A stretch of 60,862 bases of DNA from Bacillus phage vB_BspP_Dartukuta, in the sequence record MW749009.1; one strand, 5' to 3'. This document shows, piece after piece, positions 16,535 to 57,931 of the stretch. Position 1 is the first letter of the stretch. The number at the start of each line of letters is the position of its first letter. The notes below the pieces were generated by a model, which did not search any database, was not told where the DNA came from, and saw only the letters and a program-made list of their open reading frames with translations. The position numbers were made by a program, and so were the translations under genes.

Positions 16535-16556
16535 GCACACCCTGTAGAGTTTTACA
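16535..16556 (+). promoter_or_regulatory. Conserved late motif, copy 1 (CACACCCTGTAGAGTTTTACAG)
   Basis: One of four near-identical copies of CCCTGTAGrrTTT, each upstream of a late gene module; this one is ~30 bp before TerS. Confidence 0.4.
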
Positions 16557-16585
16557 GCCCACCAGCGCTGGTATCAAATCAGCGC

Positions 16586-17242
16586 ATGAGCAAGAGCACA
16601 CCACCAAACACGACAACAAAACCTAAAGCCGGCGCAAAGTCGGCTCAAAGTCGTGCCCGTACTAAAAATACGCAAGGTAAGACTTCAGCGAGTCAGGCAG
16701 ATTTTAAGCAGGAGCGCGCATTAACGCCCAAACAAGCCGCTTTTGTGCGTGAGTATCTAATTGACCTGAATGGTACGCAGGCTGCTATTCGTGCTGGTTA
16801 CAGTGAAAGGACGGCTAATGAGCAGGCCGCACGCCTGTTAGCAAATGTTAGTGTCAGCAAGGCAGTTGCTGATGCTCAAGCTGAGCGAGCAGATAGATTG
16901 GAAATCACAGCAGACCGCGTTCTTGCTGAGCTTGCAAAGATAGGCTTTGCAGATATGCGCGATGTTGCCAGTTGGGGCGAAACTGTTGTTGATGAAGATG
17001 GAAAGCCGATACATGGCGTTAAGCTCGTCAGCTCAGACAAACTTACAGACAGTGCCGCTGCAGCAATATCTGAGATTGCTGAAACCCCGGCAGGATTGCG
17101 TATCAAGTTGCATGACAAGCGAGCAGCACTGGTTGATATGGGTAAGCACTTGGGTATGTTCACCGAAAAGATAGAGCACAGCGGTGCAATCCAGGTGCAA
17201 AGCACTGTCACTTTCGTTATGCCAAAGCATAGCGAGGACTGA
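16586..17242 (+). CDS. Terminase small subunit
   Basis: ORF track 16481..17242 begins on TTG; ATG at 16586. Motif LTPKQAAFVREYLIDLNGTQAAIRAGYSERTANEQAARLLANVSV is typical of phage small-terminase proteins. Confidence 0.75.
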   Translation: MSKSTPPNTTTKPKAGAKSAQSRARTKNTQGKTSASQADFKQERALTPKQAAFVREYLIDLNGTQAAIRAGYSERTANEQAARLLANVSVSKAVADAQAERADRLEITADRVLAELAKIGFADMRDVASWGETVVDEDGKPIHGVKLVSSDKLTDSAAAAISEIAETPAGLRIKLHDKRAALVDMGKHLGMFTEKIEHSGAIQVQSTVTFVMPKHSED

Positions 17243-17244
17243 TT

Positions 17245-18516
17245 ATGCAGATCAGCTTAAACCTGCAGATACCGCACAAGCTCGCACCGCTTTACGAGCC
17301 GAAGCGATACAAAGTTATGCACGGTGGTCGTGGTGGTGGTAAGTCGCATTCTGTGGCTCAGGTGCTGCTTGACCTTGGTGCTCGGCAGCAGCTGCGTATC
17401 TTGTGTGCGCGTGAAATCCAGAAGTCAATGCGTGACTCAGTTCACCGCTTGCTCAAGGACTACATCATCAAGCTCGGGTTGACTGCATTTTATGAGATTA
17501 CTGATACCGAAATACGCGGCGTAAATGGCACGCTGTTCTTGTTCGCTGGCCTACAGGCGCACACAGTTGACTCAATCAAGTCATTCGAGGGTGTTGATAT
17601 TGTCTGGGTTGAAGAGGCGCACAGTGTTAGTAAGAAGTCGTGGGACGTACTAACACCGACCATTCGTAAAGAAGGTAGCGAAATATGGATGACGCTAAAC
17701 CCTGACATGGAGACGGACGAAACTTACGTTAGGTTTGTTGCTGCTGGCACCACTTCTGATACATGGGTTGCGGAAATCAACTGGCGCGATAACCCGTGGT
17801 TCCCAGTCGTACTGAATGAAGAGCGCAAGAAAGCCAAGCGCGAAATGAGTGCTGAAGACTACGAGCATATTTGGGAAGGAAAGGCGCGCACAGTTGCAGC
17901 CGGTGCCATATACCGTCACGAAATCATTGAGCTTGTTGCAGGTAAGCGGTTGCAGCGCATTCCGTATGACCCGCTTATGCCTGTTCACACTGTTTGGGAT
18001 TTAGGTTGGAACGACAGCATGACAATCCTGTTCGCGCAGAAAGGCCCAGCTGATATACGCATCATTGATTACATAGAGGAAAGCCATCGGACATTGGATT
18101 GGTACGTTCAACAGATAGAAAAAAGGCCATACAGATGGGGAGTTGACTATATCCCGCACGATGGGCGGACTAAAAACTTTCAAACAGGAAAAAGCACTGA
18201 AGAGCTGTTAAGGCAGATGGGCAGAAATCCTTTTGTACTCGCAGCAACTGGCATTGAAGAGGGCATTAAGGCAGTACGCATGATGTTTCCGCGCTGCTAC
18301 TTCGATGAAGACAAAACAAAACGGTTGGTTGAGTGTTTAAAGCGCTACAGCAGGCGCATACATGAAAAAACAGGCGAGCCAATGGGCCCATTGCATGATG
18401 AATACTCGCACGGCGCGGACGTGTTTAGATATTTAGGGCAAGCAGTGGAGTTGATGCGCAATGACATTGGACATACAGACTATCAAGAAGCACCCGCTGT
18501 GGACTGGCGCTTGTGA
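17245..18516 (+). CDS. Terminase large subunit (PBSX-type)
   Basis: Walker A HGGRGGGKSHSVAQ near the N-terminus, ...IVWVEEAHSVSKKSWDVLTPTIR... ATPase core; directly downstream of TerS. Confidence 0.9.
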   Translation: MQISLNLQIPHKLAPLYEPKRYKVMHGGRGGGKSHSVAQVLLDLGARQQLRILCAREIQKSMRDSVHRLLKDYIIKLGLTAFYEITDTEIRGVNGTLFLFAGLQAHTVDSIKSFEGVDIVWVEEAHSVSKKSWDVLTPTIRKEGSEIWMTLNPDMETDETYVRFVAAGTTSDTWVAEINWRDNPWFPVVLNEERKKAKREMSAEDYEHIWEGKARTVAAGAIYRHEIIELVAGKRLQRIPYDPLMPVHTVWDLGWNDSMTILFAQKGPADIRIIDYIEESHRTLDWYVQQIEKRPYRWGVDYIPHDGRTKNFQTGKSTEELLRQMGRNPFVLAATGIEEGIKAVRMMFPRCYFDEDKTKRLVECLKRYSRRIHEKTGEPMGPLHDEYSHGADVFRYLGQAVELMRNDIGHTDYQEAPAVDWRL

Positions 18517-18526
18517 GGACTAGACC

Positions 18527-56420: not shown

Positions 56421-56523
56421 AAGCGTCAAATAGAAAGTGATTTTATGTATTAAGTGGCTTACTTGACTAGAAGTGATGGCGTGCTAACTTAACTAATTCT
56501 TATGTTCAAAGGATGGAATCATC

Positions 56524-56886
56524 GTGGTAAACACTAAAGCGCTTGTATGCGCAGCAATTATGTCTACAGGGTTATTATTACCAGCCACTGGTAGTGCCTA
56601 TACAGGTAATGATTTAGATATGTGGTTATCTTCACATGCTAGGGTAGTTAGTGGTACAGGAAATGCTAAGGACTTAGAAAACTTAGATTTTCTTACGGGG
56701 TATGTGGCTGGCACGTATGACGCACTTGATGTGACAGGGAATCTGTGCGCGCCAAATAATGTGACTTTATCTCAGATGATAGCGGCGGTGAGTAAAGAGC
56801 ATAAGAACAGCCCTGAAAAGTGGACTGAAAATGCTCGCGGTATTGTGATTGTCGGCTTGGTCAGATCTTTCCCCTGTGGTAAATGA
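56524..56886 (+). CDS. Secreted hypothetical protein (120 aa) with N-terminal signal peptide
   Basis: GTG start with AAGGA upstream; hydrophobic N-terminus ALVCAAIMSTGLLLPATGSA, then Cys-containing mature region. Confidence 0.5.
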   Translation: MVNTKALVCAAIMSTGLLLPATGSAYTGNDLDMWLSSHARVVSGTGNAKDLENLDFLTGYVAGTYDALDVTGNLCAPNNVTLSQMIAAVSKEHKNSPEKWTENARGIVIVGLVRSFPCGK

Positions 56887-56998
56887 TGCTTACTGAAGCG
56901 GTTTACTCACTGGCATGGCTCTGTGAGAAATGCTCTGAAAACCTTAGAGTTCAGACTTGAGTTGAGCTCTAAGGCTAAAGCGAACAGCATTTGTTTGC

Positions 56999-57820
56999 TT
57001 ATTGAATTGAAGAAACGCACTGGCCTTTGATGTAAACGAATAGTGATCGACCGTCATTTAAGCTGTACACCCATTGCTCTGTGCCGACTATCAGCGAGTT
57101 AACTGATGATGGGGAGCCAATAGCGCTTCGCACCTCGCTACTGGTCATACCTTGCCATATTTCTTTTTGGCCTATTCTCACTATTCCTCGTTTGGGCTTT
57201 CGAGCAGTGCAAGCTTCGCGGCTACCATCTTGTGGGCGCGGGTCATTCATCTTGTTCTCGATTTGCTTGAGTCGTCTGTCGAGAGGGCTCTGGTTAGGAT
57301 TGTAATGCACTTCGCGATCATTTATTTCAGGAAGAGCATAATCAGGCTGGGAAGAAGTTGTCGCCCTTGGTGATGAAGTTAGGCCAACTTCTCTGGCTTC
57401 ACGGCGCAGGCGAACAGCGCGAGCTGCTTGGCTTTCGCGGCTTGAATCGTGAACTACCGTCACACCGCTAGGGTTTTCCTTACGTTTCCTGGCTATAGCT
57501 TCTTCCTTTTCCCGCAAGCGGCGGTTGATTAGGCCGCCAAGGGTAGAAGGGTCTTCTGCACGAGGATCTGGCACGACAGTGACCTTCATTGTTGAGCTAG
57601 AAGGATTGCTGCGAGCATATTCAATTTCTCTGACCTGCTCTGGAGTCGCGAATGTTCCTATCTGATTGGTTTGAGTGTTAACTATCTCGGACACACCTTC
57701 AGGTGTTGTACAAGGCACGTTTGCGAAGCTCACTTTTCCGTCAGGGCTTATGCACTTATAGACTTGACTATAGGCGAGTACTGGGGTCATAAAAACAGCA
57801 AGCATGACGTAATTCCACAT
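56999..57820 (-). CDS. Secreted protein with DUF4124-like N-terminal domain (~274 aa)
   Basis: ORF track 56999..57868; ATG at 57820 with AGGAG upstream; signal peptide MWNYVMLAVFMTPVLAYS then QVYKCISPDGKVSFANVPC; Ser/Arg-rich middle. Confidence 0.5.
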   Translation of the reverse strand: MWNYVMLAVFMTPVLAYSQVYKCISPDGKVSFANVPCTTPEGVSEIVNTQTNQIGTFATPEQVREIEYARSNPSSSTMKVTVVPDPRAEDPSTLGGLINRRLREKEEAIARKRKENPSGVTVVHDSSRESQAARAVRLRREAREVGLTSSPRATTSSQPDYALPEINDREVHYNPNQSPLDRRLKQIENKMNDPRPQDGSREACTARKPKRGIVRIGQKEIWQGMTSSEVRSAIGSPSSVNSLIVGTEQWVYSLNDGRSLFVYIKGQCVSSIQ

Positions 57821-57908
57821 AGCATTTCTCCTGAAAATTCCTTGTGTTGTTTTATAAGCTGCAAGCAAAAAACCTAATATATCAAAGCATCCGGCAGATT
57901 ACCTTAGT

Positions 57909-57931
57909 GCCACCCTGTAGAGTTTCACACG
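57909..57931 (+). promoter_or_regulatory. Conserved late motif, copy 4 (GCCACCCTGTAGAGTTTCACACG)
   Basis: ~50 bp upstream of the holin ATG; followed by a 9-bp inverted repeat (57936..57944 / 57970..57978) that includes the GGAAG ribosome-binding site. Confidence 0.4.

Follow-up and report, generated by a model that had tools for sequence, protein, structure and literature searches.

Four copies of a conserved 15-bp site at the heads of late gene modules, and a candidate winged-helix activator, in an F116-like temperate phage

The four motif copies and their occurrence in related phages

We analysed a stretch of 60,862 bp (record MW749009.1, Bacillus phage vB_BspP_Dartukuta; the whole stretch is referred to as the window), in which a short motif recurs at the heads of the late gene modules and in which the gene at 16096..16527, coding for a protein of 143 amino acids (aa), is a candidate for the regulator acting on it. 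Its genes identify the window as a temperate phage akin to Pseudomonas phage F116, with an F116-like (Hollowayvirus-like) gene layout. Its left part harbors an integrase, RecE/RecT, a CI-like repressor and a Cro-like gene, then O-like, NinB, YbcO and RusA genes, and its late part carries, in this order, TerS, TerL, portal, scaffold-like, capsid, tail-region genes, a 662-aa gene, a 4203-aa gene, holin and endolysin. The open reading frames (ORFs) of the window and their PHROG matches agree with the annotations of phages LKA5 and Y11, and the gene order in common comprises Nin-type genes, the regulator, TerS/TerL/portal, scaffold, an N4-gp56-type capsid, a gene of about 700 aa, a giant gene (>3,000 aa) and the lysis genes. 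Nucleotide searches against the listed phage records and E. coli genomes gave no match, so that the window would represent a distant relative lying outside the genus; the search for relatives by means of the 662-aa protein retrieved none. The features on which the argument is built are the following.

16096..16527, + strand: candidate late activator, 143 aa, closing the early-right operon immediately downstream of RusA
16528-16585, 21285-21473, 40515-40607 and 57869-57981: intergenic gaps holding the four motif copies, all on the + strand
16538..16552, + strand: site 1 core CACCCTGTAGAGTTT, predicted activator site of the TerS promoter, with a counterpart before terS in LKA5, Y11 and many loci
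16586..17242, + strand: TerS, without Shine-Dalgarno sequence, its ATG at 16586 being the predicted transcription start
21301..21329, + strand: intrinsic terminator-like hairpin and T-run, at the end of the TerS-TerL-portal unit, with site 2 about 20 nt further on
21346..21360, + strand: site 2 core CCCCCTGTAGGTTTT, before the scaffold-like and major capsid genes
40538..40552, + strand: site 3 core CACCCTGTAGGATTC, before the 662-aa gene and the 4203-aa polyvalent-protein gene
57911..57925, + strand: site 4 core CACCCTGTAGAGTTT, before the holin/endolysin cassette

The 8-mer CCCTGTAG occurs eight times in the window, compared with about one expected, and four of these copies extend with no mismatch to the longer pattern CMCCCTGTAGRNTTY (at 16540, 21348, 40540 and 57913, all on the + strand), while the scan of the whole window with CMCCCTGTAGRNTTY gave no further position at one or two mismatches. 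The other four matches to the 8-mer (15417-, 24888+, 38327- and 56564-) lie within ORFs and show no likeness beyond the 8-mer itself. An independent scan with CCCCCTGTAGGGTT, a consensus derived from other phages, returned only the same four sites at two mismatches or fewer; thus, the by-eye scan behind the original prediction, which had described four near-identical intergenic copies on the coding strand, overlooked none. Since only about 5.7% of the window is intergenic according to a simple gene model, the chance that all four copies fall in intergenic DNA on one strand is about 7e-7. The four-copy observation is therefore confirmed, with two corrections of detail: the coordinates given for copies 2-4 were exact and those of copy 1 were off by one base (the string lies at 16536..16557), and in the consensus CCCTGTAGrrTTT the “rr” should read “rn” because copy 2 has GT. 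The identities proposed for the flanking genes (TerS, scaffold/capsid, the 662-aa and giant genes, and holin/endolysin) agree with the PHROG matches.

The motif is shared by a wide range of phages and prophages, in which the consensus of its core is ACCCCCTGTAGGGTTyG. In Pseudomonas phage LKA5 (63% GC) it stands at the same four module heads as in the window (CCCCCCGTAGGGTT before terS, CCCCCTGTAGGGTT both before the scaffold-like gene, which is followed by the capsid gene, and before the pair formed by a 720-aa gene and the giant gene, and CCCCCTGTAAGGAT before holin). Shewanella phage Y11 (47% GC) harbors exactly four matches at three mismatches or fewer, all on the + strand and again at the same four heads; its regulator gene lies about 6 kb away from terS and its site 1 remains beside terS. 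The exact 14-mer of the motif was found in at least 120 IMG/VR stretches, and 12 of the 13 contigs with multiple matches carry all of them on a single strand. In 14 viral contigs harboring a homologue of the 143-aa protein the motif follows the homologue and, in 41 prophage loci fetched through the protein alone, 46 matches lie on the strand of the regulator vs. 3 on the opposite one, the latter being close to the chance level. The hosts of these prophages include Pseudomonas, Acinetobacter, Moraxella, Psychrobacter, Variovorax, Acidovorax and Zoogloea, and the C-rich core is kept in the Acinetobacter loci despite their GC content of 38-42%. As a separate observation, the site 2 core of LKA5 (28355-28393) forms the 3' arm of a 10-bp inverted repeat, GAAACCCTAC-N13-GTAGGGTTTC, which is annotated as a terminator in the record, so that the end of one late unit overlaps the activator site proposed for the next one.

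Promoter anatomy and the start of TerS

A logo was constructed from 110 non-redundant sites, position 0 being the first C of CCTGTAG. The conserved core extends from -4 to +12; outside of it, the only informative flank positions are an A at +34 (75/110) and a T at +38 (78/110), and the upstream flank exhibits no conservation. The exact string ACACT begins at +34 in 26 of 163 sites, compared with a mean of 0.25 per offset elsewhere, and the relaxed string AnAnT begins at +34 in 61 and at +35 in 28 of the same 163 sites (mean elsewhere 1.78). Hence, there is a second box, nACACT, placed 23 nt downstream of the core. An A and a T four bases apart (A-11 and T-7) are the key bases of the -10 hexamer of sigma-70-type promoters. 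We accordingly read the stretch from +33 to +38 as a putative -10-like hexamer that has A-11 and T-7 and mostly lacks T-12, and the stretch from +10 to +15 (TyGACc) as a weak -35-like hexamer, separated from the former by a 17-bp spacer and overlapping the 3' end of the core. The core would then lie at about -49 to -35, with transcription starting near +45; class II activators bind in this position. All four promoters of the window conform to this arrangement of core, -35-like hexamer, 17-bp spacer and -10-like hexamer.

16551..16579, + strand: site 1 promoter, -35-like TTTACA (16551-16556), 17-bp spacer, -10-like TCAAAT (16574-16579), predicted start 16586
21359..21387, + strand: site 2 promoter, -35-like TTGAAT, 17-bp spacer, -10-like AACACT (21382-21387), predicted start ~21394, gene start 21474
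40551..40579, + strand: site 3 promoter, -35-like TCGCAA, 17-bp spacer, -10-like CAACAT (40574-40579), predicted start ~40586, gene start 40608
57924..57952, + strand: site 4 promoter, -35-like TTCACA, 17-bp spacer, -10-like AAGAAT (57947-57952), predicted start ~57959, holin start 57982

The AACACT of site 2 is among the commonest forms of this box in the family, and site 1 offers an alternative -10-like TATCAA at 16572-16577.

The start of TerS provides a second fixed distance. A separate gene call on identical DNA places the beginning of TerS at the same ATG (16586), and an ATG opening a long ORF is found at +45 or +46 in 34 of 193 sites (about 25 of them distinct), the neighboring offset windows giving none. 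No tetramer resembling a Shine-Dalgarno sequence precedes this ATG in any of the 26 sites checked; such a sequence is present at most other late genes of the window. An ATG fixed at the predicted +1 and devoid of a ribosome-binding site is the signature of a leaderless messenger and fits poorly with a start about 30 nt earlier, so that the TerS mRNA is probably leaderless. Taken together, the downstream box at a fixed distance and the start codon of TerS at the predicted start argue that the sites are promoters. ATGs at +45/+46 were also observed at second sites placed before genes other than terS (locus L046 at 12220, L057 at 488 and L063 at 4513; e.g., ...GGGGGGATGGCAAA), and leaderless late genes may thus extend beyond terS.

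Some further features were noticed around these starts. At TerS, the inverted repeat GCGCTG (16565-16570)/CAGCGC (16580-16585) lies on both sides of the -10 box and reaches up to the ATG or takes it in (16565-16588). An equivalent repeat is present at the terS sites of L003, L005, L014, L015 (LKA5 24121-24160) and others (e.g., CCGGG-AACACT-CCCGG), the sequence of the arms varying by lineage and their pairing being maintained. Inverted repeats of at least 5 bp occur in 46% of the terS-type sites vs. 7.6% of the other sites and 18% of shuffled sequences. RNAalifold revealed no consensus structure in the ATG-anchored alignment of terS sites because the stems are out of register, and the count of inverted repeats in each sequence, with its controls, was used instead. 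Upstream of holin there is a long hairpin (57936-57978; GTAACTTCC...AATACC-caaaaac-GGTATT...GGAAGTTAC; fold z-score -3.0), which takes in the -10 box of the lysis promoter together with its predicted start, the latter falling in the loop. The 3' arm carries GGAAG, the Shine-Dalgarno sequence of holin, and the hairpin could serve as an operator or could mask the ribosome-binding site on longer transcripts.

Site 1 also reads, at 16542-16557, as CTGT-N8-ACAG (CTGTAGAGTTTTACAG), which is the spacing of the gammaproteobacterial LexA box. The close relative L001 keeps this spacing, which neither sites 2-4 nor the family consensus show; chance may account for it, or it may represent an extra SOS lock on the TerS promoter. 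As a reader of the core in general, a LexA box was rejected since it fits site 1 only. Sigma-32 was discarded in the same role, as the sites have no conserved -35, and a pho box was considered and rejected too.

The candidate regulator, the proposed mechanism and its alternatives

The 16096..16527 product matches the profile of phrog_8117 (F116p37-like) over its full length, which is labelled “unknown function” (E 7.2e-45, residues 34-171 of the long ORF). It has 157 homologues in a large protein collection and shares 41% identity with LKA5_037; the exact protein was found only on two short metagenome contigs. In the structure model (predicted local distance difference test, pLDDT, 85), residues 9-66 form a winged helix, which is followed by three beta strands (76-97) and by a long helix at the C-terminus (99-142); the predicted winged helix shows the three-helix bundle and the beta-hairpin wing typical of this fold. 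The Pfam and NCBIfam searches gave winged-helix matches that were all below threshold, the fold search gave only domain-level winged-helix matches, both in the PDB and among viral models, and no significant match was obtained in a profile search of solved structures. The gene lies between NinB/YbcO/RusA and terS, in the slot taken by lambda Q or RinA. Of the 29 terS-type sites, 24 have a homologue no more than 3 kb upstream, for another two the homologue is found in a different part of the contig (26/29), and the co-occurrence of protein and motif holds whether the loci are fetched through the protein or through the motif. The regulator and the motif thus travel together, and the 16096..16527 protein is likely the activator, as far as these comparisons go.

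In helix 3, residue 46 tracks position 6 of the motif and its neighbors (loci Y11 (L177+L178), L160 and L001). Proteins with Arg at this residue go mostly with TAGGG, those with Lys (the clade of the window) only with TAG[AG]N, and those with Asn (Y11 and a Psychrobacter prophage) only with TAAGG (6/6 sites). This covariation matches common preferences of residues for bases and is suggestive of residue 46 as a possible specificity determinant.

Based on this evidence, we propose, with a probability of roughly 0.6, that each of the four motif copies forms the upstream half of a late promoter that depends on an activator, the host polymerase being recruited to it by the 16096..16527 protein in a class II manner. 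Each promoter would consist of a 15-bp core (family ACCCCCTGTAGGGTT, window CMCCCTGTAGRNTTY) at about -49 to -35, of a weak -35-like hexamer overlapping the 3' end of the core and, after a 17-bp spacer, of the -10-like nACACT; in the absence of the activator, all four should be poor sigma-70 promoters. The 143-aa winged-helix protein, being encoded by the last gene of the early-right operon, would build up after induction, bind the core (centered at about -42) and recruit the host RNA polymerase as a class II activator. This would switch on four units, namely TerS/TerL/portal, scaffold/capsid/tail, the 662-aa gene with the giant polyvalent protein, and lysis; the presence of a terminator directly before site 2 argues that the late units are separate. 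At the first promoter, the first nucleotide of the transcript would be the A of the TerS start codon, so that the mRNA would have no leader. Binding of the core by the protein, an activating and not a repressing effect, the use of the host sigma-70 holoenzyme and the exact start sites are what we infer from the comparisons. The original prediction, which had read the motif as a phage-specific late promoter or activator site, is in this respect supported by the comparative evidence and refined, in that the 15-bp core would be only the upstream, activator-site part of the promoter; its suggestion that the small protein encoded just before the first copy might be the cognate regulator is backed by the winged-helix model and by the co-occurrence with the motif, from which the link between protein and site is deduced.

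A more speculative extension, which we regard as possible and rather doubtful, is that phrog_8117 winged-helix activators and their near-invariant 15-bp site form an undescribed prophage regulon of Beta- and Gammaproteobacteria in which the translation of TerS and of the lysis genes is tied to the start of transcription, so that packaging and lysis would be locked to the late promoter at two levels. According to this idea, TerS would be translated only from the leaderless mRNA starting on its ATG, read-through from the early operon giving a transcript that has no Shine-Dalgarno sequence for TerS and bears the inverted repeat running from around the -10 box to the ATG; at the lysis genes, the start would lie in the loop of the hairpin and the Shine-Dalgarno sequence of holin in its 3' arm.

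Several points weigh against the proposal that the 143-aa protein activates these promoters. Both A+34 and T+38 are present in only about 60% of the sites, and site 1 of the window has a C at +34. The core includes TAGGGT, a TAnnnT string, which leaves room for a -10 within the core itself. The covariation at residue 46 concerns three clades and is confounded by their shared ancestry, and the model of a tandem-linked dimer is of low confidence (pLDDT 65) and was set aside, so that dimeric binding is unsupported. Moreover, the terS-type sites of L104, L106 and L134 have no detectable regulator within 3 kb upstream, and the core is near-identical even in L046, L050 and L065, where the identity of the regulator drops to 31-33% and helix 3 is altered, a constancy which a more conserved reader, of the host or of the phage, would explain more easily.

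These last two points favor the alternative that survives best, which nevertheless appears unlikely to us, namely that the sites are late promoters or activator sites read by a host factor or by another phage protein, the 16096..16527 product having another role, e.g., as a packaging-initiation helper beside terS or as a repressor. The 14-mer is in fact essentially invariant across hosts although helix 3 of the regulator differs, and three terS-type sites have no detectable homologue nearby. On the other hand, the window, LKA5 and Y11 show no other conserved DNA-binding gene accompanying the motif, we know of no host factor of such specificity, and a regulon with multiple sites would by itself slow the change of the motif. 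Regulator and motif occur together in 26 of the 29 cases, and Y11 retains all four sites even with its regulator about 6 kb from terS.

It is improbable, in our opinion, that the core itself represents a -10 or extended -10 element for an alternative or phage-modified sigma factor (sigma-32-like, or recognizing a -10 only, like T4 gp55), with the start about 16 nt after the beginning of the core. The -10 element of sigma-32 promoters has the consensus CCCCATNT, which CCCCCTGT resembles, and TAGGGT fits TAnnnT in 145 of 163 sites. This model fails because the place expected for a -35, 13-17 bp before the core, shows no conservation, because the box at +33 to +38 (with its A+34 and T+38) is left without explanation, and because TerS would have a leader of about 29 nt lacking a Shine-Dalgarno sequence in 26 of 26 lineages. 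In addition, no sigma-like gene is present among the scanned ORFs or in the annotation of LKA5, and such a G+C-rich -10 would melt poorly.

Still less probable is that the protein acts as a Q-like antiterminator and that the motifs are its loading sites at otherwise constitutive promoters. The gene does lie in the lambdoid Q slot, with Nin-region genes before it and late genes after it; against this, the sites are four and dispersed instead of one, the core is upstream of the -35 position, and the protein has no Pfam match to any antiterminator family. An intrinsic terminator followed by a new site (21301-21360) indicates re-initiation rather than read-through and, together with the separate units, argues against antitermination of the Q type.

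The copies lie on the gene strand and at module boundaries, which would suit a signal for processing or translation within a long late transcript, or a DNA signal for packaging or recombination (including one of the Chi type). We regard such roles as the least probable of all: no RNA structure over the core is common to the four sites (z-scores of about 0 at sites 2 and 3) and no Rfam family matches there, site 4 comes after a gene of the opposite strand and so would fall outside any + transcript arriving from upstream, a pac site would be expected only once, and a -10-like box at a fixed distance with an ATG at the predicted start are properties of promoters.

In the searchable literature, a scope outside which the 2005 genome paper on F116 lies, we found no description of either the motif or the regulator; as far as we found, the pair, which is common in prophages, has not been described previously and, on comparative grounds, appears to be a real and well-conserved system. 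If activation by the 143-aa protein is correct, it would define the late switch of F116-like phages, among which are generalized transducers of Pseudomonas aeruginosa and many prophages of Acinetobacter, Moraxella and soil Betaproteobacteria. It would also propose a function for a widespread protein family that is now annotated as unknown or mislabelled AbiEi. The 15-bp signature could mark late operons in prophage annotation, and the predictions are precise, that is, four start sites in the window and a leaderless TerS mRNA. The pair of regulator and site could become an orthogonal inducible promoter system, and lysogens deleted for the regulator could lose the ability to produce virions and to transduce.

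Known late-control systems and neighboring genes

The C protein of phage Mu (like its middle activator Mor) is a small DNA-binding protein produced towards the end of early expression; it serves several scattered late promoters, whose -10 is usable and whose -35 is poor. The site of C/Mor overlaps or abuts the -35 region and is centered in the low -40s, and Mu has four late promoters. The system proposed here resembles it, by sequence only, in having one small activator, four late promoters and a core that overlaps a weak -35. It differs in that there is no sequence kinship, the Mor-family Pfam domain being found neither in the window protein nor in 29 family members, in the predicted fold (winged helix, beta module and long helix) and in the site, whose C-rich core is asymmetric apart from a weak CCC...GGG dyad. 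In P2, four late operons with a conserved upstream element are controlled by one phage activator (Ogr, or Delta of P4) working on the host polymerase; Ogr is a Cys4 zinc-finger protein and binds TGT-N12-ACA near -55. The four late units proposed here to be under one phage activator recall this arrangement. Unlike P2, the site is closer to the -35 and of different sequence, and neither feature of Ogr/Delta is present, since the window protein has no cysteine and the four sites have no ACA 12 nt past TGT.

Lambda cI at PRM is an activator placed near -42 beside a weak -35, and the transcript starts on the A of the ATG and is leaderless, as predicted here for the TerS promoter with its activator at about -42 and its leaderless mRNA. 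Unlike the protein studied here, cI is the repressor-activator of lysogeny, belongs to another helix-turn-helix family and acts in this way at one promoter, not on late genes. With the lambdoid Q protein the candidate shares the genomic slot; it differs in the several promoters with terminators between them and in the site lying upstream of the -35, and no match to the Q antiterminator family was found for the window protein or the family members. No match was found to sigma-70 or ECF sigma factor domains either, the modelled fold being a single winged helix, beta strands and one long helix.

In Gram-positive temperate phages, RinA/ArpU/LtrC proteins activate the promoter upstream of terS that drives packaging and late genes; the regulator gene precedes terS, and control of a single late operon promoter is described (PMC3152322). 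The likeness to our system is restricted to the position of the regulator gene before terS; the family is unrelated (the window protein has no match to this superfamily in the Pfam, PHROG and NCBIfam scans), the hosts there are Gram-positive, and four or more dispersed sites occur here. AbiEi antitoxin, the label carried by some homologue records, was considered and rejected, AbiEi_4 scoring 18.7 bits against a cut-off of 25 and the neighbors being RusA/TerS and not the AbiEii toxin. By the defining features tested, the candidate regulator is therefore outside the Mor, Ogr, Q, RinA, sigma and AbiEi families.

Two features of the third late unit complete the picture of the late region.

42617-55228, + strand: 4203-aa polyvalent protein with InPase, LPD1/5/23/38, ART-PolyVal, ddrB-ParB and GNAT-like domains
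55240..55271, strand not assigned: hairpin CCTCGCC...GGCGAGG followed by TTTAAT, just past the giant gene, read from the sequence by eye

The hairpin probably terminates the transcription unit of site 3. The homologue of the giant gene in phiC725A was labelled a putative RNA polymerase from a weak C-terminal similarity to N4 gp50 (PMC5217972). In the window, the domain scan of the 4203-aa protein gave no RNA-polymerase signal, and there was no PDB match to the virion RNA polymerase of N4; with polyvalent-protein domains only, a phage RNA polymerase as the product of this gene was dropped. The annotation of LKA5 lists neither a sigma factor nor a polymerase.

Between the giant gene and the lysis genes there is a moron region. 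Rfam identified a C4 antisense RNA, its a1/b1 target and isrK at 56223-56407 (-), and a gene with a P22 antirepressor N-terminal domain (55302-56183, -) lies directly downstream of the C4/isrK RNAs; this looks like an antisense-controlled antirepressor module of the P1/P7 immI type. A Rap1a-family gene (56524-56886, +; Rap1a is an immunity protein by Pfam naming) and a DUF4124/BamE-like gene (56999-57868, -) are probably both morons, and the fact that they split the giant gene from the lysis cassette may explain why lysis has a separate promoter. At the right end, past the lysis genes, there is a TnpB-like gene (OrfB_IS605 and a Cas12f1-like TNB domain; 59445-60542, -), and the early-left region carries a tRNA-Arg with anticodon TCT (9883-9959, -).

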